From: Escherichia phage dhabil
Sequence record: MN850621.1
Strand: one strand, 5' to 3'
Length of the DNA stretch: 64,000 bases
The notes beneath the pieces are model-generated. The model saw only the letters and a list, made by a program, of their open reading frames with translations, was not told where the DNA came from and did no database searches. This document shows, piece by piece, positions 5,054 through 43,510 of this stretch (position 1 is the stretch's first letter; the number at the start of each line of letters is the position of its first letter). The translations under genes and the position numbers were made by a program.

Positions 5054-5353
5054 TCAGATGTCTTCAGGGTAAATGTCGGCATCGCTGCCAATCGGAGTAA
5101 CCCCGGGTTCGTCTTCACCATAAATGCCTCGAATATGAAGTTCACCATAATAAATTCGGTCGTTTGGTTCTAAAATATCGGAATCAATTAAAGGAAATTC
5201 ACCTTCGACCACCTCATCACATTCTAGAAAAGCGTAATGGACATCGCCAGGATGTTTAACGAGCTTAGCACAATAAACAGTACCTGCTCGATGGAACCCA
5301 CGCAAATTAGAAATCTTGATATCACGTTCACCGACATTTAGGTAATTAATCAT
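5054..5353 (-). CDS. hypothetical protein, 99 aa
   Basis: ORF-track start is GTG at 5362; ATG at 5351-5353 chosen. Confidence 0.4.
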   Translation of the reverse strand: MINYLNVGERDIKISNLRGFHRAGTVYCAKLVKHPGDVHYAFLECDEVVEGEFPLIDSDILEPNDRIYYGELHIRGIYGEDEPGVTPIGSDADIYPEDI

Positions 5354-5354
5354 T

Positions 5355-5552
5355 TTACTCACCGAAATAAGAAATACGAACCTCTAAACAATGCGCATAT
5401 GCACCCATCGCATCCAGTTGGGCAATCAGTAACCCTTGTTGACGGATATCAAGAGTTTCAAAAACACCACCTTTAATAAACTCTTCGAGAGCATTAATTT
5501 TCAGGACCAGTTGGTCGTATTCTTCAATTACACGTGCTTGGAAACCTAACAT
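5355..5552 (-). CDS. hypothetical protein, 65 aa
   Basis: ATG at 5550-5552 with SD GAGGAA; immediately downstream of rIIB. Confidence 0.45.
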   Translation of the reverse strand: MLGFQARVIEEYDQLVLKINALEEFIKGGVFETLDIRQQGLLIAQLDAMGAYAHCLEVRISYFGE

Positions 5553-5590
5553 AATTCCTCATTAGGAGGCCGAAGCCTCCATTTATTAAT

Positions 5591-6559
5591 TTAGTATTTG
5601 TATTCGTTTGCGAACTGTTCAGTGACGTCTTCCAGAACTTCATAATAACATACACGCATTTTAGCATCACCGTAATCGACTGGGATACTAACAACATCAC
5701 GTGGGTTAACTTTACATGAAACTACTTTACAGTTAGAGTTACCAAAATGACCGATATAGCTACGAGAGCAAACATGCAGACCCGTTGAACAAGTTACTTC
5801 GTCGTCATCATTTACACGCGAACGAGGCATTTTAACTGGCTTACCTGGCGAGTTATCAAACGTACCAGTACGGCAGTCGGTGTAATCGGAGTTAACAACT
5901 TTCCATGCGATAAAGTGGCCGTCTTCAGTGATTTTGATATCGTTCGCGACCAGGAAGTCGAACAGACGCTGTACGGCTTTTTCGCTTGGGTTTTCTAACA
6001 GATTCTCAAGGAACGGCAGGTAGAATTCAAAATCTTCGCCATTTTCCATTGAGGTGATAATACGGTCAATCAACCCTGAACGTAATTCAATACCTTGATA
6101 AACCAGACGTCCACCTTCAATACGAACGTTACCTTTAACGAAAGCCTTGACAGCTTCTTTAATGGAAATCAGTTTAATCGCATCATCAAAACGGGATTCT
6201 TTAAGAGCCTGTACGATGGCATCAAAATGTTTGTTCTTATTAGTAGTGTTCCATACTGTACGACCTTCAGTGATGGATACGAATTTAGAACTGGCGTTCC
6301 AGATAATTTCTGGACGAGAACCGCCGATAGTAATATCCACCGGAACAAATCGAGGTTCGTTAGGAACCGTTACTTTGATATTTCCGGTAATAACCACTTG
6401 AGAACGTTTAGCTTCTTCAGCATTTTTCAGGACTTTACGGATGCTATCAACCGAGACACTGTACCGGTCGGCCAACTCATTCTGGGTATAATTACCAGAA
6501 GTATATAACTTAACGATGTCGACTTGTTCGGATTTAGTCAAACACTTAATATTGTACAT
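5591..6559 (-). CDS. rIIB: rIIB protector from prophage-induced early lysis
   Basis: 322 aa; N-terminus MYNIKCLTKSEQVDIVKLYTSGNYTQ matches T4 rIIB as recalled; adjacent to rIIA. Confidence 0.9.
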   Translation of the reverse strand: MYNIKCLTKSEQVDIVKLYTSGNYTQNELADRYSVSVDSIRKVLKNAEEAKRSQVVITGNIKVTVPNEPRFVPVDITIGGSRPEIIWNASSKFVSITEGRTVWNTTNKNKHFDAIVQALKESRFDDAIKLISIKEAVKAFVKGNVRIEGGRLVYQGIELRSGLIDRIITSMENGEDFEFYLPFLENLLENPSEKAVQRLFDFLVANDIKITEDGHFIAWKVVNSDYTDCRTGTFDNSPGKPVKMPRSRVNDDDEVTCSTGLHVCSRSYIGHFGNSNCKVVSCKVNPRDVVSIPVDYGDAKMRVCYYEVLEDVTEQFANEYKY

Positions 6560-6573
6560 AATATTTCCTTAGA

Positions 6574-8784
6574 TTAAGCCGCTTCCACGGCTTTCATGAA
6601 TTTAACGATTTGAGCTACAGAAGCCTCGGTAATGGATGTTCCACGACGATACATGTAATCCGAAACTAAATGGTAATCGGATTCAAACTGTACAGTCATT
6701 TTATCATTGTTACTTGAAGCATTATTGGTTAGCGTATTGAACGTCGTGTTACAGATTTTCTTGATAACAGAAAGTTTGTCATCAGTGATATACCCATGGA
6801 AATTCATATAACGGAATATATCATAGAAATTGCTCAGACGAGTATATGCTTCAGACACCGGCTTATCACTGAAATATTTAGTCATAAAACCAAGCTCAGG
6901 GAACTTAGCAATAATTTCAAGATAATACCTTGCACGGGTATTACTACCAATATAATCATCAATATCTACAGCATCTAGTGCTTCGGCATAAGCTTCTAAC
7001 GTGGTTTCCATCAAGCATTCACATTGGCCTAACTTTTTAATCTTTTTGGCAATCTGAGGGCGAATGATATGGAATTCGGTAGCACCAATCAAATTAGCCA
7101 TACGGCACATGGTAGTGGTGTTGATGTCAAAGATACCATAAGCTTCATCCATTCCCATGATATCAGAACGACTACCAAACAATACGTACCCTGTAATTTC
7201 TTCTGCTTCTGCAGCAGTTAAGTATAAGGTCTCTTGTTGCCAACGCCCGTCTTTAATGAACCAACGATAAGCACTTGGTGTTTTAGGACGAGGTTCGGAT
7301 GAACGAACAGTAACCGGAATCCACGGCTTAACAATTTTATTCAGTTCAGAGACTTTATAAAAATGAATTGTGTCGCCTTTAAAAAGTTCTTTAACCTTTT
7401 CAAGTTGTTGCATTTGCAACATTGAATTCGGGTCAACAAAAATAAGGTCTGTTCTGTATTTAGGAATATTGTGCTCTTTAACAATTTTCTTGGCCGAAGC
7501 GCTGTTGTCCATTGCTAAGGCCCAAAGTCCTCGAACTAATGGCACACGACCCTTTTCATCATCATAAACAATATGGATTTCTTTATTATTAATACCTAAT
7601 AGGCCACTAAGTCCTGCTACCGAAGAAGTATTACCACTCGGCTTAATTCGTTTCAAACGTGGGTCCATACAAACTTCGTAAACAACACCCAAATTAATAA
7701 GGTCGTTTTGAAGTGTATAACGTTGGTACAATTTCTCGTATGTTAATTTTTCAGTTGTGAACTCTTTAGTAACGCCTCTTTTAGAAAGATAGTCGCGAGC
7801 ACTATAACCTAGGTTAGAAAGGTCACGATAAACATGACGTGGATTATCAGATTCAACCCATTCCTGTGTATCGTTTTTAAAGACCAATGCATCCAAGGCT
7901 TCGATACGAGTTGCGATATTTTCCATTGTGCGTTTATCAAGAGACAGCACTTCACGAGATGGAGCGATATCTAACGAACCCATAGGGAACTTAATATAAA
8001 CTACATCATGGCGAGTACGCATCCATGTGCCTTTAATATAAGCCGAATCCAATGGATAAACAATACCACCATAAACGGCATAAAGCCCTGAACGTTCAAA
8101 ATCACCGTAGCCGGTATCGGTTACAGCATAGTAGTCATCAAATTCAGGGAAATAATCAACTTCGGCCCCATCAACATCACCAAGCCCAATGAACGGGCGC
8201 ATGATATATCGAACTTCAGTTTCAAACTTACGGAAATCTTCTTCGTCGACAGGAACCGTGATTTCGATACCTGTTTTGTCGCCTGGTTGCATTGGTTCAA
8301 CGAATGTAGGTTTAATCTGCGGCCCGTCACCATCCATATAAGCTACATAACCGCGAACTTCACCATTATGCCAGGATGTAATATTAAACGTTTCGGTATA
8401 ACTGAACGGGGATTTAGAACCAAGGCCAAATCCACCAATGAAATCGTTAGAAGCAGTTTTAGATGATGCGAAATAAGAGTTATACAAACCGGTTTCGTTT
8501 TCATCACCACGAATCTGGAAATCGCTCATACCTGGACCGAAATCACGACACACAAAGCGTGGGTCGAGCTTACCAGGAACCTGTACTTTCCAACGTTCTT
8601 TATTACCATTCAGAATATGAGCATCGATCATGTTGGTAATTAGTTCACGAACTACAGCACGCACCTTATTACTATAAAGGTCTGATGAAAGAATTTTAAA
8701 GACCTTAGGTGAGGCCTGGATAGTAAATCCTGTGGACTTAGCACCATTACCAATGATTTGTTCTTTTTCGGTTTCAATAATCAT
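6574..8784 (-). CDS. rIIA: rIIA protector from prophage-induced early lysis (GHKL-type ATPase fold)
   Basis: 736 aa; N-terminus MIIETEKEQIIGNGAKS...VVRELITNMIDAH matches T4 rIIA as recalled. Confidence 0.9.
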   Translation of the reverse strand: MIIETEKEQIIGNGAKSTGFTIQASPKVFKILSSDLYSNKVRAVVRELITNMIDAHILNGNKERWKVQVPGKLDPRFVCRDFGPGMSDFQIRGDENETGLYNSYFASSKTASNDFIGGFGLGSKSPFSYTETFNITSWHNGEVRGYVAYMDGDGPQIKPTFVEPMQPGDKTGIEITVPVDEEDFRKFETEVRYIMRPFIGLGDVDGAEVDYFPEFDDYYAVTDTGYGDFERSGLYAVYGGIVYPLDSAYIKGTWMRTRHDVVYIKFPMGSLDIAPSREVLSLDKRTMENIATRIEALDALVFKNDTQEWVESDNPRHVYRDLSNLGYSARDYLSKRGVTKEFTTEKLTYEKLYQRYTLQNDLINLGVVYEVCMDPRLKRIKPSGNTSSVAGLSGLLGINNKEIHIVYDDEKGRVPLVRGLWALAMDNSASAKKIVKEHNIPKYRTDLIFVDPNSMLQMQQLEKVKELFKGDTIHFYKVSELNKIVKPWIPVTVRSSEPRPKTPSAYRWFIKDGRWQQETLYLTAAEAEEITGYVLFGSRSDIMGMDEAYGIFDINTTTMCRMANLIGATEFHIIRPQIAKKIKKLGQCECLMETTLEAYAEALDAVDIDDYIGSNTRARYYLEIIAKFPELGFMTKYFSDKPVSEAYTRLSNFYDIFRYMNFHGYITDDKLSVIKKICNTTFNTLTNNASSNNDKMTVQFESDYHLVSDYMYRRGTSITEASVAQIVKFMKAVEAA

Positions 8785-21224: not shown

Positions 21225-21392
21225 AATTAACTCCTTTGTTGTTTAATTACAGGCGTATTTATTACTTTGAATTCGCCAAAGCTTCAATGATTTCTCTGTC
21301 TATTTCTTTAGTTATTTCGTTACGTAATAAAATAGCGGCCGAAGCCCTTTTCTTATTCAACTTTTTGAGTTGACGTTTATTTAAACGAGGCA

Positions 21393-21914
21393 TTAATAAC
21401 CTCGGTCTTGACGAGCAAAGTTCTCGGCATTTTTCAGATAATACAGTTTAAAGATTTCTTCAGCGGTCAGTCCAAGACCCTGGAACATATTAAGAACAAA
21501 GTGCAGAATATCAATCATCTCGAATTTGATTTCGAGCTGGTCTTCAGGAGACAACTCGTCAATACGACGATTACGGAATTCAGCATGTTGGGCTTTCCAA
21601 GGCTTCCACACACTAGAGGCAGCTTTTTCGCCATTACTCATACCGCCAAGAGAAGTCAGCAGTTCACGGAATTCATCATCAATATAATCTTTCTGGTTGC
21701 GAAGCCAATCAACAACTTGACCTGCTGTAGCTAGTTCATCAGGATTGGTGTTGAATTCCGATTTTTCAGTGGCCAGACGAACCTGTAATGATTTCTGCAT
21801 ATCAAGCATAACTTGCAGAGGGTCTTTATCTTCGTGAATCAGAGCATTAAAATAAGCTTCTTCAGCTTTATCAGCACCAGCAATAAGTTGAGAACATTCA
21901 TTAAAATGAGCCAT
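21393..21914 (-). CDS. 56: dCTP pyrophosphatase (gene 56)
   Basis: 173 aa; size and position between soc and 61 as T4 gp56. Confidence 0.65.
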   Translation of the reverse strand: MAHFNECSQLIAGADKAEEAYFNALIHEDKDPLQVMLDMQKSLQVRLATEKSEFNTNPDELATAGQVVDWLRNQKDYIDDEFRELLTSLGGMSNGEKAASSVWKPWKAQHAEFRNRRIDELSPEDQLEIKFEMIDILHFVLNMFQGLGLTAEEIFKLYYLKNAENFARQDRGY

Positions 21915-22005
21915 TATATTTTTCCTTTTTCAATTCATTAATAAGTTAGATAATTATAAACTGTTAGACTAAAGCGAATAAATATTAATTTAACAGGAGG
22001 ATAAC

Positions 22006-22206
22006 ATGGGCAGTATTTTTTACCAAATCTGGAAATTGGCAGAAAAGAAAGACAAGAAAATGATGTTAGGTTTTCTTGCGCTAGACGTATTCCTTTGGAA
22101 TCTTCTAGTAGTCCCTGTAGCCGCTAGCCAAGGGGTAATTTTACCAGCGGTTACAATGGAACACGTGTTAAGCATAATTGGATTCTTTAGCGGAGTTCCT
22201 GTCTAA
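22006..22206 (+). CDS. hypothetical membrane protein, 66 aa; only plus-strand candidate with a strong RBS
   Basis: AGGAGG at 21995-22000, 5-nt spacer, ATG at 22006; hydrophobic C-terminal half; lies in the 56-61 intergenic gap. Confidence 0.4.
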   Translation: MGSIFYQIWKLAEKKDKKMMLGFLALDVFLWNLLVVPVAASQGVILPAVTMEHVLSIIGFFSGVPV

Positions 22207-23231
22207 ATTTTAGAATATTTTGAAAGCCTCATTTTTGCCATTAACCCTTGGGCTATATTAGCTTTCATATATGCCAATACATCATTTATATCAGCTTTAT
22301 CTTTCATAACCATATCATTTATATCTTTAGAAGGCCACGGAGCCTTGTCCCAGAATAGAACCCTTTCGCCAGCATCAACTAGGCGTTGCATACGCTTAAT
22401 TGTGTCAGGATGACGGGGTTCATTGTCCATTACCCACGCTCTTGTTTCTTTACATGGAACTACTGATAAGTCTAATGACCCACCAGTAATTGCTATGGCA
22501 TTAGGGACAAATAAAGAATCAATAGGACCTTCCATTACCCACACCAATTGACGTTCGTCAACTGTATCCATTCCATATATTTTTGTAGCTTGGTCATGAG
22601 CTTTTATTGTAATATATTTTTGTGGAGCATCTTTACGTAAGGCTCGGCCCTGAAAACTTTCTATTTGTTTATCCTTATTGAAAATAGGAATAACCAAACG
22701 AGGCTCAGGCATTTCTTTAGAATAGGTTCCTGGATTAACTGAGTTAACCAATGCAGGCCATTCTTTAGTAAACCATAACCGATTCCATTTATTTTCAGGA
22801 ATGCACCGCAACGTCACATATTTGATAATAGGATGGTCCTTCGGCATTCTATCTAATCGTTCGCAGAAATTAAGCTTTTCAATGACAGGCATCTTAGCTT
22901 TAATTTTTTCAGATATCTCCACCTTAGGTGCAGCTTGTCTCCCGAACGATTGCTCTTTATGTTTCTCAAGAATATATTCCCGATATAAATCAGGTTCGTA
23001 TTCGTATAGGTACTTCTTAATTCCTGCCGAATAATCACAGTTAAAACAGTGTAGCATTACAGAGCCGTCATTGGCCGGATAGGCCCAGAATCGAGCTTTG
23101 TTTTCATCTTTTTGGGAGTCACCACATACACGGCAACGACAGTTTAATTTAAAATCACTACCAGTTACTTGTCTGAATTTAGGTTGGTAATTCAAGGCAC
23201 GTACAGCAAATTCTCTATCGACATATGACAT
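22203..23231 (-). CDS. 61: DNA primase (gene 61)
   Basis: 342 aa; zinc ribbon CRCRVCGD...CFNCD and TOPRIM EGPIDS; same length as T4 gp61. Confidence 0.9.
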   Translation of the reverse strand: MSYVDREFAVRALNYQPKFRQVTGSDFKLNCRCRVCGDSQKDENKARFWAYPANDGSVMLHCFNCDYSAGIKKYLYEYEPDLYREYILEKHKEQSFGRQAAPKVEISEKIKAKMPVIEKLNFCERLDRMPKDHPIIKYVTLRCIPENKWNRLWFTKEWPALVNSVNPGTYSKEMPEPRLVIPIFNKDKQIESFQGRALRKDAPQKYITIKAHDQATKIYGMDTVDERQLVWVMEGPIDSLFVPNAIAITGGSLDLSVVPCKETRAWVMDNEPRHPDTIKRMQRLVDAGERVLFWDKAPWPSKDINDMVMKDKADINDVLAYMKANIAQGLMAKMRLSKYSKI

Positions 23232-23269: not shown

Positions 23270-23431
23270 TCATTCGTTTTCGGATTTTTCTTTACGCTTT
23301 TTAGATGGGATTTGTTCAGGCCCTTTGTTGACGACTGCGCCTGAGGTAGTTCCGGAGGCAATATTAGATGGATTTCCATCAGCATCGCCTGCGACCATAT
23401 CTTCGTTCATAACTTCTTTAAAAGATTTCAT
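23270..23431 (-). CDS. small charged protein, 53 aa
   Basis: ATG at 23429-23431 with SD AGGAG; TATAAATA 14 nt upstream. Confidence 0.35.
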   Translation of the reverse strand: MKSFKEVMNEDMVAGDADGNPSNIASGTTSGAVVNKGPEQIPSKKRKEKSENE

Positions 23432-23444
23432 AGGCTCCTGGCCT

Positions 23445-23452
23445 TATTTATA
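23445..23452 (-). promoter_or_regulatory. T4 late-promoter-like TATAAATA box
   Basis: Exact minus-strand TATAAATA (plus tatttata) upstream of the 53-aa ORF. Confidence 0.45.
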
Positions 23453-43287: not shown

Positions 43288-43510
43288 TTTACCAATTAAT
43301 ACGCCATACAGAGGTTCATGAGAAGACCTGAACTTGATTTTCTTATAAGTAATAGTACCTTCATTTTCCGCTTTAATACGAGCAGCTTCAAATTTAAGTA
43401 TCATCTCATTTTTGTCAGATTTAATCTTATCAAAATCCATCGAATTCGTCATTCATAAAACCTCTTAAAAATCAGGATGTTCGTCTTTCATTAGCCACCT
43501 GTCCATGTTA

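Follow-up and report, generated by a model that had tools for sequence, protein, structure and literature searches.

In the stretch of DNA analysed here (64 kb, referred to as the window), open reading frames of at least 60 aa on the minus strand cover 91% of the sequence. Between gene 56 (dCTPase, 21393-21914, minus strand) and the primase gene 61 (22203-23231, minus strand) a reading frame of 66 codons runs on the plus strand. This raises the question whether it is a gene, when it would be expressed and what its product may do. Over 2 kb the window shares 99.2% identity with dhaeg and CLB_P2, two phages of the genus Dhakavirus.

Read directly from the sequence, the frame occupies 22006-22206 on the plus strand, with ATG at 22006 and TAA at 22204-22206. 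The features of the locus are as follows.

21977-21984, plus strand: predicted gp55-type late promoter AATAAATA, i.e. the TATAAATA consensus with A at -13
21995-22000, plus strand: Shine-Dalgarno sequence AGGAGG with a 5-nt spacer (ATAAC) to the ATG, read from the sequence
22006-22206, plus strand: coding sequence of a 66-aa protein (phrog_2024), orthologous to RB69ORF029w and to a T4 ORF that is without annotation
22203-22206, both strands: convergent overlap of stop codons by 4 bases (TAA of the ORF, TAG of gene 61 on the minus strand)

A preliminary description of the locus had reported a plus-strand ORF of 66 aa with AGGAGG, 5 nt and ATG between genes 56 and 61, all of which we find in the sequence. 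It gave the length of the gap as 290 bp; the gap is there and measures 288 nt, most of it occupied by the ORF. According to the same description no other plus-strand ORF in a gap has good translation signals. Our whole-window scan agrees, as 22006-22206 is the sole plus-strand ORF of at least 40 aa in a gap with a strong Shine-Dalgarno sequence. Only one other plus-strand ORF (46 aa, ATG start, 43318-43458) is both wholly within a gap between minus-strand ORFs and preceded by a Shine-Dalgarno-like sequence, a weak GAGG; it is without a late-promoter motif.

The reading frame is conserved in well over 1,000 phage records. A tblastn search with the window product returned 469 phage records and one with the equivalent T4 ORF 790, the two sets partly overlapping. 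An ORF of 60-74 codons on the plus strand is arranged tail-to-tail with gene 61 in nine or more T4-type genera. The loci compared were the following.

Dhakavirus (JS98, dhaeg): ortholog tail-to-tail with the primase gene
Tequatrovirus (T4, T2, T6, RB32): likewise tail-to-tail
Mosigvirus (RB69, HX01): likewise tail-to-tail
Gaprivervirus (VR26): likewise tail-to-tail
Marfavirus: likewise tail-to-tail
Kanagawavirus (Q7622, PEi20, CIP9, Kosakonia 305): likewise tail-to-tail
Gelderlandvirus (CGG4-1, STP4-a): likewise tail-to-tail
Jiaodavirus (JD18, Metamorpho): likewise tail-to-tail, with an extra gene inserted on the primase side in Metamorpho
Unclassified relatives (Citrobacter phage Ursula, a metagenomic T4-type contig): ortholog tail-to-tail with the primase gene

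The T4 ortholog likewise has 66 codons and is located between dam and gene 61 (NC_000866, 17738-17938). The same 4-nt stop overlap with gene 61 is present in T4, Marfa, VR26, HX01, RB69, CIP9, Ursula and STP4-a. The neighbour on the primase side is nearly constant across genera, Metamorpho being the lone exception seen. The neighbour on the other side varies between gene 56, dam, a small 56-like gene and a homing endonuclease, with extra small genes or a homing endonuclease on the 56 side in Marfa, Kanagawavirus and Kosakonia phage 305.

Differences between the orthologs fall mainly at third codon positions, which is the pattern of coding sequence under purifying selection. The window and Marfa differ at codon positions 1/2/3 by 11/5/38 and share 77% amino-acid and 73% nucleotide identity. 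For PEi20 against Kosakonia 305 the differences are 2/4/22 (dN/dS 0.07), and dN/dS is 0.13 for JD18 against Metamorpho. Moreover, the protein matches phrog_2024 (function unknown) at E 6.5e-28, residues 1-64 aligning to profile positions 1-64 of 65. A spurious ORF was considered and rejected, as the substitution pattern is that of coding sequence. The preliminary description had treated the frame as a gene candidate and named its conservation in related phages as a way of checking it. With orthologs beside gene 61 in nine or more genera and a third-position bias in their substitutions, the candidate stands, and we regard 22006-22206 as a real gene with virtual certainty.

Gaprivervirus VR26 carries two tandem paralogs, ~25% identical, at 995-1192 and 1201-1401 of the extracted locus. 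One belongs to the T4/RB69 subtype and one to the Dhakavirus subtype, and several further Gaprivervirus phages show two matching places in tblastn. The first VR26 paralog alone has the late-promoter motif described below; the second has its own Shine-Dalgarno sequence 8 nt downstream. By analogy, this tandem arrangement is reminiscent of holin/antiholin pairs.

The late promoter of T4 is TATAAATA, spanning -13 to -6. Of the 50 T4 sites listed, 9 have A instead of T at -13, a variant that is also common in relatives, and late transcripts of either polarity occur (PMC2988020, PMC1524935). In the window, AATAAATA ends 21 nt before the ATG of the new gene. With this motif taken as -13 to -6, transcription is predicted to start near 21990-21993; a start near 21990 is 5 nt before the Shine-Dalgarno sequence and results in a leader of ~15 nt that contains it. 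The heptamer ATAAATA occurs on the plus strand just once in the 64-kb window, at 21978-21984. Counting both strands of the window there are 6 copies, while 26 +/- 4.5 are expected from 100 dinucleotide-preserving shuffles, all of which had at least 6. This roughly four-fold depletion is consistent with selection against stray late promoters. A minus-strand copy at 21256-21262 lies 32 nt upstream of soc. Since soc is a late gene, this copy serves as a positive control.

The promoter motif is conserved together with the gene. Among 16 orthologous gene starts, NATAAATA is found in 13 and TATTAAATA in the other 3, located 12-22 nt before the ATG, and JD18 and Metamorpho have a second copy of the motif at 33 nt before the ATG. 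Outside the motif, the upstream sequences of these 16 starts are unalignable. A Shine-Dalgarno sequence (AGGAGG, GGAGG or AAGGAG) precedes the start by 4-7 nt in all 16 first-in-operon orthologs. Judged from these signals, the gene is very probably expressed late.

Further motifs and frames were noted nearby. A perfect TATAAATA is located at 23445-23452 (minus strand), inside the early gene cluster. The homolog of gene 61.1 (ORF 23270-23431, minus strand, 53 aa) starts 13 nt downstream of it and may therefore also be transcribed late. This site is among the only six ATAAATA copies of the 64-kb window. Between soc and gene 56 there is a lysine-rich ORF of 43 aa (21262-21393, minus strand), annotated in dhaeg (dhaeg_233) and unannotated in JS98; the late-promoter motif of soc (21256-21262) overlaps its 3' end.

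The predicted protein can be divided into three segments.

22006-22059, plus strand: residues 1-18, basic N-terminal segment, predicted cytoplasmic (net charge +3, positive-inside rule)
22060-22125, plus strand: residues 19-40, predicted transmembrane helix with invariant W31, N32 and P37 (alignments, AlphaFold2, hydropathy)
22126-22203, plus strand: residues 41-66, predicted loop followed by a short C-terminal hydrophobic helix, 51-62 (alignments, AlphaFold2)

Family alignments reveal that, besides W31, N32 and P37, G43 is invariant; P47 and G63 are nearly so, and most members have an acidic residue at position 52. Residues 19-40 reach a mean Kyte-Doolittle hydropathy of 2.0. Across the orthologs, net charge is +1 to +7 in the N-terminal 15-24 residues and -2 to 0 in the part that follows the hydrophobic helix. 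Applying the positive-inside rule to this distribution, the N-terminus is expected to be cytoplasmic. AlphaFold2 places helices at 3-10, 17-41 and 51-62, albeit with modest confidence (mean pLDDT 65.8); helix 51-62 is hydrophobic and too short for confident spanning of the membrane. A Foldseek comparison of this modest-confidence model with viral structures returned family members only. The preliminary description had suggested a small membrane protein with a hydrophobic C-terminal half. Hydropathy, charge distribution and the AlphaFold2 helices agree with the first part, and we consider it highly probable that the product is a membrane protein. The hydrophobic character is likewise seen, its extent being larger than described: it comprises residues ~19-40 plus 54-66, more than the C-terminal half.

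What kind of membrane protein it may be was evaluated by homology. A Pfam scan of the window protein gave no match even at E 10, and an NCBIfam scan nothing useful. A profile search of 1.84 billion cluster representatives retrieved only 20 clusters; the family is hence small. Several of its distant members match PF11351 (GTA_holin_3TM) at E 0.013-0.07 with 14-16.5 bits, each time in the same region of the profile, and phrog_3427 'holin' at E 5e-4 to 2e-3. The PF11351 gathering threshold (24.8 bits) is reached by no T4-type family member. Using one distant member as query, tblastn led to two proteins above the thresholds of both PF11351 and phrog_3427. One comes from a T7-like Roseobacter phage, in which its gene is flanked by the tail-fibre genes and by DNA maturase A; T7 has its holin gene at this position. 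The other is an annotated holin located two genes upstream of a peptidase gene.

We then compared alignments directly. From viral contigs 80 PF11351 loci were gathered and reduced to a non-redundant alignment of 31 proteins, all 31 verified against Pfam PF11351; the query alignment consisted of T4-type proteins only. hhalign aligned the two over 45 columns with a probability of 95.6%, E 1.3e-8 and a score of 47.9, and a separate run of T4-type against PF11351 alignments gave a probability of 95.3% and P 2.1e-8. Reversed alignments scored 11.9, 100 column shuffles 11.2 on average (maximum 17.2) and 100 local block shuffles 12.5 on average (maximum 25.6). As the real score is far above those of the shuffled controls, hydrophobic composition alone is an insufficient explanation.

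The aligned region covers the second-to-last hydrophobic segment of PF11351, which corresponds to residues 19-40, and the loop plus last hydrophobic segment, which correspond to residues 41-66. The invariant residues of the T4-type proteins (W/Y-N, P, G, P) coincide with conserved PF11351 columns. On this evidence homology to PF11351 is very likely. The T4-type proteins start just before the core helix and stop right after the last hydrophobic segment. They are without the N-terminal ~60 residues of PF11351 (...IPD..., N..EA motif), WRPxIGW and the basic tail RTFEK.KG. Because these features are missing and the Pfam threshold is failed, the alignments argue for a truncated remote homolog of PF11351 rather than a member of it.

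Family members outside the T4-type phages fall into proteins of 69-70 residues on siphovirus-like contigs and proteins of 96-98 residues, which abound in prophages of Escherichia, Klebsiella, Serratia and Pectobacterium. One cluster of the PF11351-like 96-aa prophage proteins alone is found on more than 900 contigs. tblastn with two distant members detected no relatives in cultured phages beyond the T4-type phages. The non-T4 relatives belong to clusters of tail genes, where a phrog_1924 'minor tail protein' gene is their neighbour, and not to classical lysis cassettes; their genomic context therefore gives no independent support for a lysis role. In an E. coli prophage the family gene lies ~1.4 kb from a Phage_lysozyme gene on the opposite strand.

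In these clusters the family gene is repeatedly linked to the phrog_1924 gene (179-186 aa) and to a gene of ~105 aa of unknown function, both downstream of a tail-tip gene (5136-6291 in the E. coli prophage, 6001-7089 in two other loci; positions in the extracts). A nearby protein of 88-98 aa combines an N-terminal transmembrane segment with a coiled coil and has weak XhlA/Rz-like matches.

ICP1 TeaA carries the PF11351 domain, and for this protein collapse of the proton motive force and DNP-triggered lysis have been reported (PMC7182436); of the PF11351 proteins considered here, TeaA is the only one with holin activity shown. At five of ten sampled PF11351 loci a peptidoglycan hydrolase gene is adjacent (Peptidase_M15_3, Peptidase_M15_4, Glyco_hydro_108 twice, Amidase_2), and a sixth has DUF5675 as neighbour. 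The gene in the window adjoins genes 56 and 61, and in T4-type phages it is not beside an endolysin or holin gene.

Taken together our data point to a conserved late gene for a membrane protein that is homologous to a holin core and may act in late membrane permeabilisation or the timing of lysis, a tentative reading to which we give a nearly even chance. According to this reading, RNA polymerase with the phage sigma factor gp55 would start late in infection at AATAAATA (21977-21984). The resulting mRNA with its short leader would oppose the surrounding early genes, and the strong AGGAGG would drive translation of the 66-residue protein. The protein would insert in the inner membrane by one transmembrane helix, with its basic N-terminus in the cytoplasm and the short loop and hydrophobic C-terminal helix at or in the periplasmic face. 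There it may self-associate and contribute to late permeabilisation or lysis timing, presumably by assisting or modulating the main T holin and not as an independent holin. A lysis-related function as such has a somewhat less than even chance.

Genetic data on T4 bear on this. Mutants of t were reportedly described by Josslin in 1970 as failing to lyse while they keep respiring. On that basis a second autonomous holin would not be active in T4. Sequenced r mutants of T4 are said to fall in rI, rII, rIII, rIV(sp) and rV(t), a result attributed to Burch et al. in 2011. Since all of them lie in other genes, loss of the new gene probably gives no rapid-lysis plaque. As rIV maps near gene 61, we considered whether the new gene might be rIV; a review citing Burch et al. 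2011 equates rIV with sp/61.3, and this identity was rejected.

Other explanations of the element were weighed against this reading. As the stop codons overlap by 4 nt, there is no room for a terminator between the ORF and gene 61, and a late transcript of the plus strand must enter gene 61 in antisense. The element might hence mainly produce a late antisense RNA against the early message of the primase region (61/61.1), the ORF being secondary. Further along the plus strand, the first terminator-like hairpin comes at 23432-23444, beyond genes 61 and 61.1, and T4 transcribes both strands of some sites at different times (PMC2988020). However, terminator-like sites in the region occur at chance level (2 found vs 1.6 expected), and the ORF of Metamorpho is not adjacent to gene 61, as another gene lies between the two. 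Moreover, purifying selection at the protein level and the Shine-Dalgarno sequence in every ortholog show that the peptide is selected. Such a role is thus quite unlikely; selection on the protein excludes antisense as the main reason for the element, and an antisense effect could be a by-product. A different proposal came with the preliminary description, namely that of an origin-associated membrane peptide tied to an oriA-type origin near gene 56. Indeed only ~115 bp separate the ORF start from gene 56 (its 5' end) in this phage, and the T4 RefSeq record annotates oriA in the equivalent region. Linkage, however, is usually to the 3' end of gene 61 and not to gene 56/oriA; in T4 dam intervenes and the ortholog lies ~1 kb from the annotated oriA point. 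The late-promoter motif implies expression after origin-dependent initiation, and the only detectable relatives are membrane proteins of the holin family. Inspection of the flanks for iterons and skew, suggested in the same description, was negative as well. The repeat search around the ORF revealed no iterons and no repeat families beyond chance two-copy matches, the composition profile no switch in skew apart from a small local change of the kind that a flip of the coding strand produces, and the Rfam scan no match and no structured RNA. An origin-linked peptide is therefore hardly credible.

Two further alternatives accept a late membrane protein and differ in what it does. The N-terminal 40 residues might form a cleavable or releasable signal sequence, such that a hydrophobic peptide of ~25 residues in the periplasm or outer leaflet would be the active product. 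A basic N-region, a hydrophobic stretch and a conserved P-x-A-x-[AST]-x-G in the alignments are in line with this, the latter resembling an A-x-A signal-peptidase site preceded by proline. With ~22 residues in the hydrophobic stretch and ~18 in the N-region, both are long for a cleaved signal peptide, though, and the homologous PF11351 segment is a transmembrane helix in which 6 residues are inserted here and A-x-A is lacking. We consider cleavage improbable. More plausible, although at clearly less than even odds, is a real late membrane protein in which the holin-like core is reused outside lysis. It could serve late morphogenesis as a membrane anchor or assembly factor, protect the envelope of the infected cell or interfere with holins of resident prophages. 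The missing N-terminal region and basic tail suggest a changed function, and the phrog_1924 gene next to the non-T4 relatives places these in tail clusters and not beside an endolysin. PF11351-like proteins of 96 aa abound in enterobacterial prophages, and T4 needs t for lysis. On the other hand, nothing positive speaks for any specific one of these alternatives, and holin is the only functional annotation that can be reached by homology. The reading as a late membrane protein acting in permeabilisation or lysis timing is the one we prefer.

Just past genes 61 and 61.1, the terminator-like hairpin with T-run at 23432-23444 (plus strand) reads AGGCTCCTGGCCT TATTTATATT. Its T-run is complementary to the TATAAATA that precedes the 61.1 homolog. 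A late plus-strand transcript from the new gene, antisense to the primase message, could terminate at this hairpin after ~1.45 kb.

The gene call as such is already known, as the product is a 'hypothetical protein' in many genomes and has a PHROG. RB69 annotates it as RB69ORF029w, whereas the RefSeq records of T4 and JS98 leave the gene unannotated. A literature search found no paper on its presence in T4 despite the missing annotation, its conserved dedicated late promoter or its relationship to PF11351. Likewise no study of the gene was found in the literature on ribosome profiling and small-ORF discovery in T4, and none for RB69ORF029w or phrog_2024.

In the extracted loci the gene is located at 2239-2439 (T4), 2117-2317 (JS98) and 1201-1401 (T6). 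T6 has the codon ATT at the position of the T4 start, and its annotated start is Met6. Product names that resemble transferred errors occur in many genomes: 'dCTP pyrophosphatase' (dhaeg_231, CGG4-1), 'DNA packaging ATPase' (SAKp28) and 'putative head morphogenesis protein' (T6). The name 'Holin', which the UniProt entry of the T4-type phage OE5505 bears without explanation, resembles another such transfer. The mis-annotated records merit correction, and the gene merits addition to those of T4 and JS98.

Both phage lysis and its inhibition have T4 as their reference system, and the lysis genes of T4 (t, e, rI, rIII, spanins) are regarded as a complete set. The new gene is conserved, has strong expression signals and encodes a predicted late membrane protein whose only detectable relatives are experimentally supported holins. 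It is a candidate for a component so far overlooked in the timing of lysis or the control of the envelope. It would further indicate that a holin core can persist as a protein of 60-70 residues alongside an unrelated holin. One may speculate that T4 and its relatives carry a second, unrecognised lysis component of the holin family, a miniature PF11351-type protein with its own late promoter that cooperates with the T holin. It might, for instance, be a trigger that depolarises the membrane and sharpens the timing of lysis, or a modulator within the membrane. This is possible and no stronger a proposal than that; if true, such a component has been absent from the T4 reference annotation for decades.

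Among known systems, the T4 holin T and the antiholins RI and RIII come from the same phages and are small late-phase proteins that act at the inner membrane, as predicted for the new protein; RI is a small protein with a single N-terminal hydrophobic domain. No sequence relationship of T, RI or RIII to the new protein was detected, and the r-mutant collections are not known to include the new gene. Pinholins and truncated holin-like regulators (phage 21 S68/S71, lambda S107) are small membrane proteins with two segments that depolarise the membrane or modulate a holin without releasing the endolysin themselves. The likeness of the new protein to these is one of concept and not of homology.

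Closer by sequence are the other members of phrog_2024 (RB69ORF029w, RB32ORF030w and the enterobacterial prophage proteins of 96-98 aa). Its T4-type members are equal in length, position and orientation, whereas those of prophages have retained extra N-terminal residues alignable to the N-terminal part of PF11351 and are located near tail genes and a lysozyme gene. The holins of PF11351/PHROG 3427, such as the Rhodobacter capsulatus GTA holin and TeaA of Vibrio phage ICP1, share with the T4-type protein the core of helix, loop and segment with W/Y-N-x4-P, G, P, an acidic residue and G. Both are small phage-encoded proteins of the inner membrane and the late phase, this being a prediction for the T4-type protein. 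In contrast to the PF11351 holins of ~133 aa, the latter comprises 66 aa and is without the N-terminal amphipathic or first hydrophobic region, WRPxIGW and the basic C-terminal tail. Its gene is not placed beside an endolysin and coexists with the unrelated, essential holin T.
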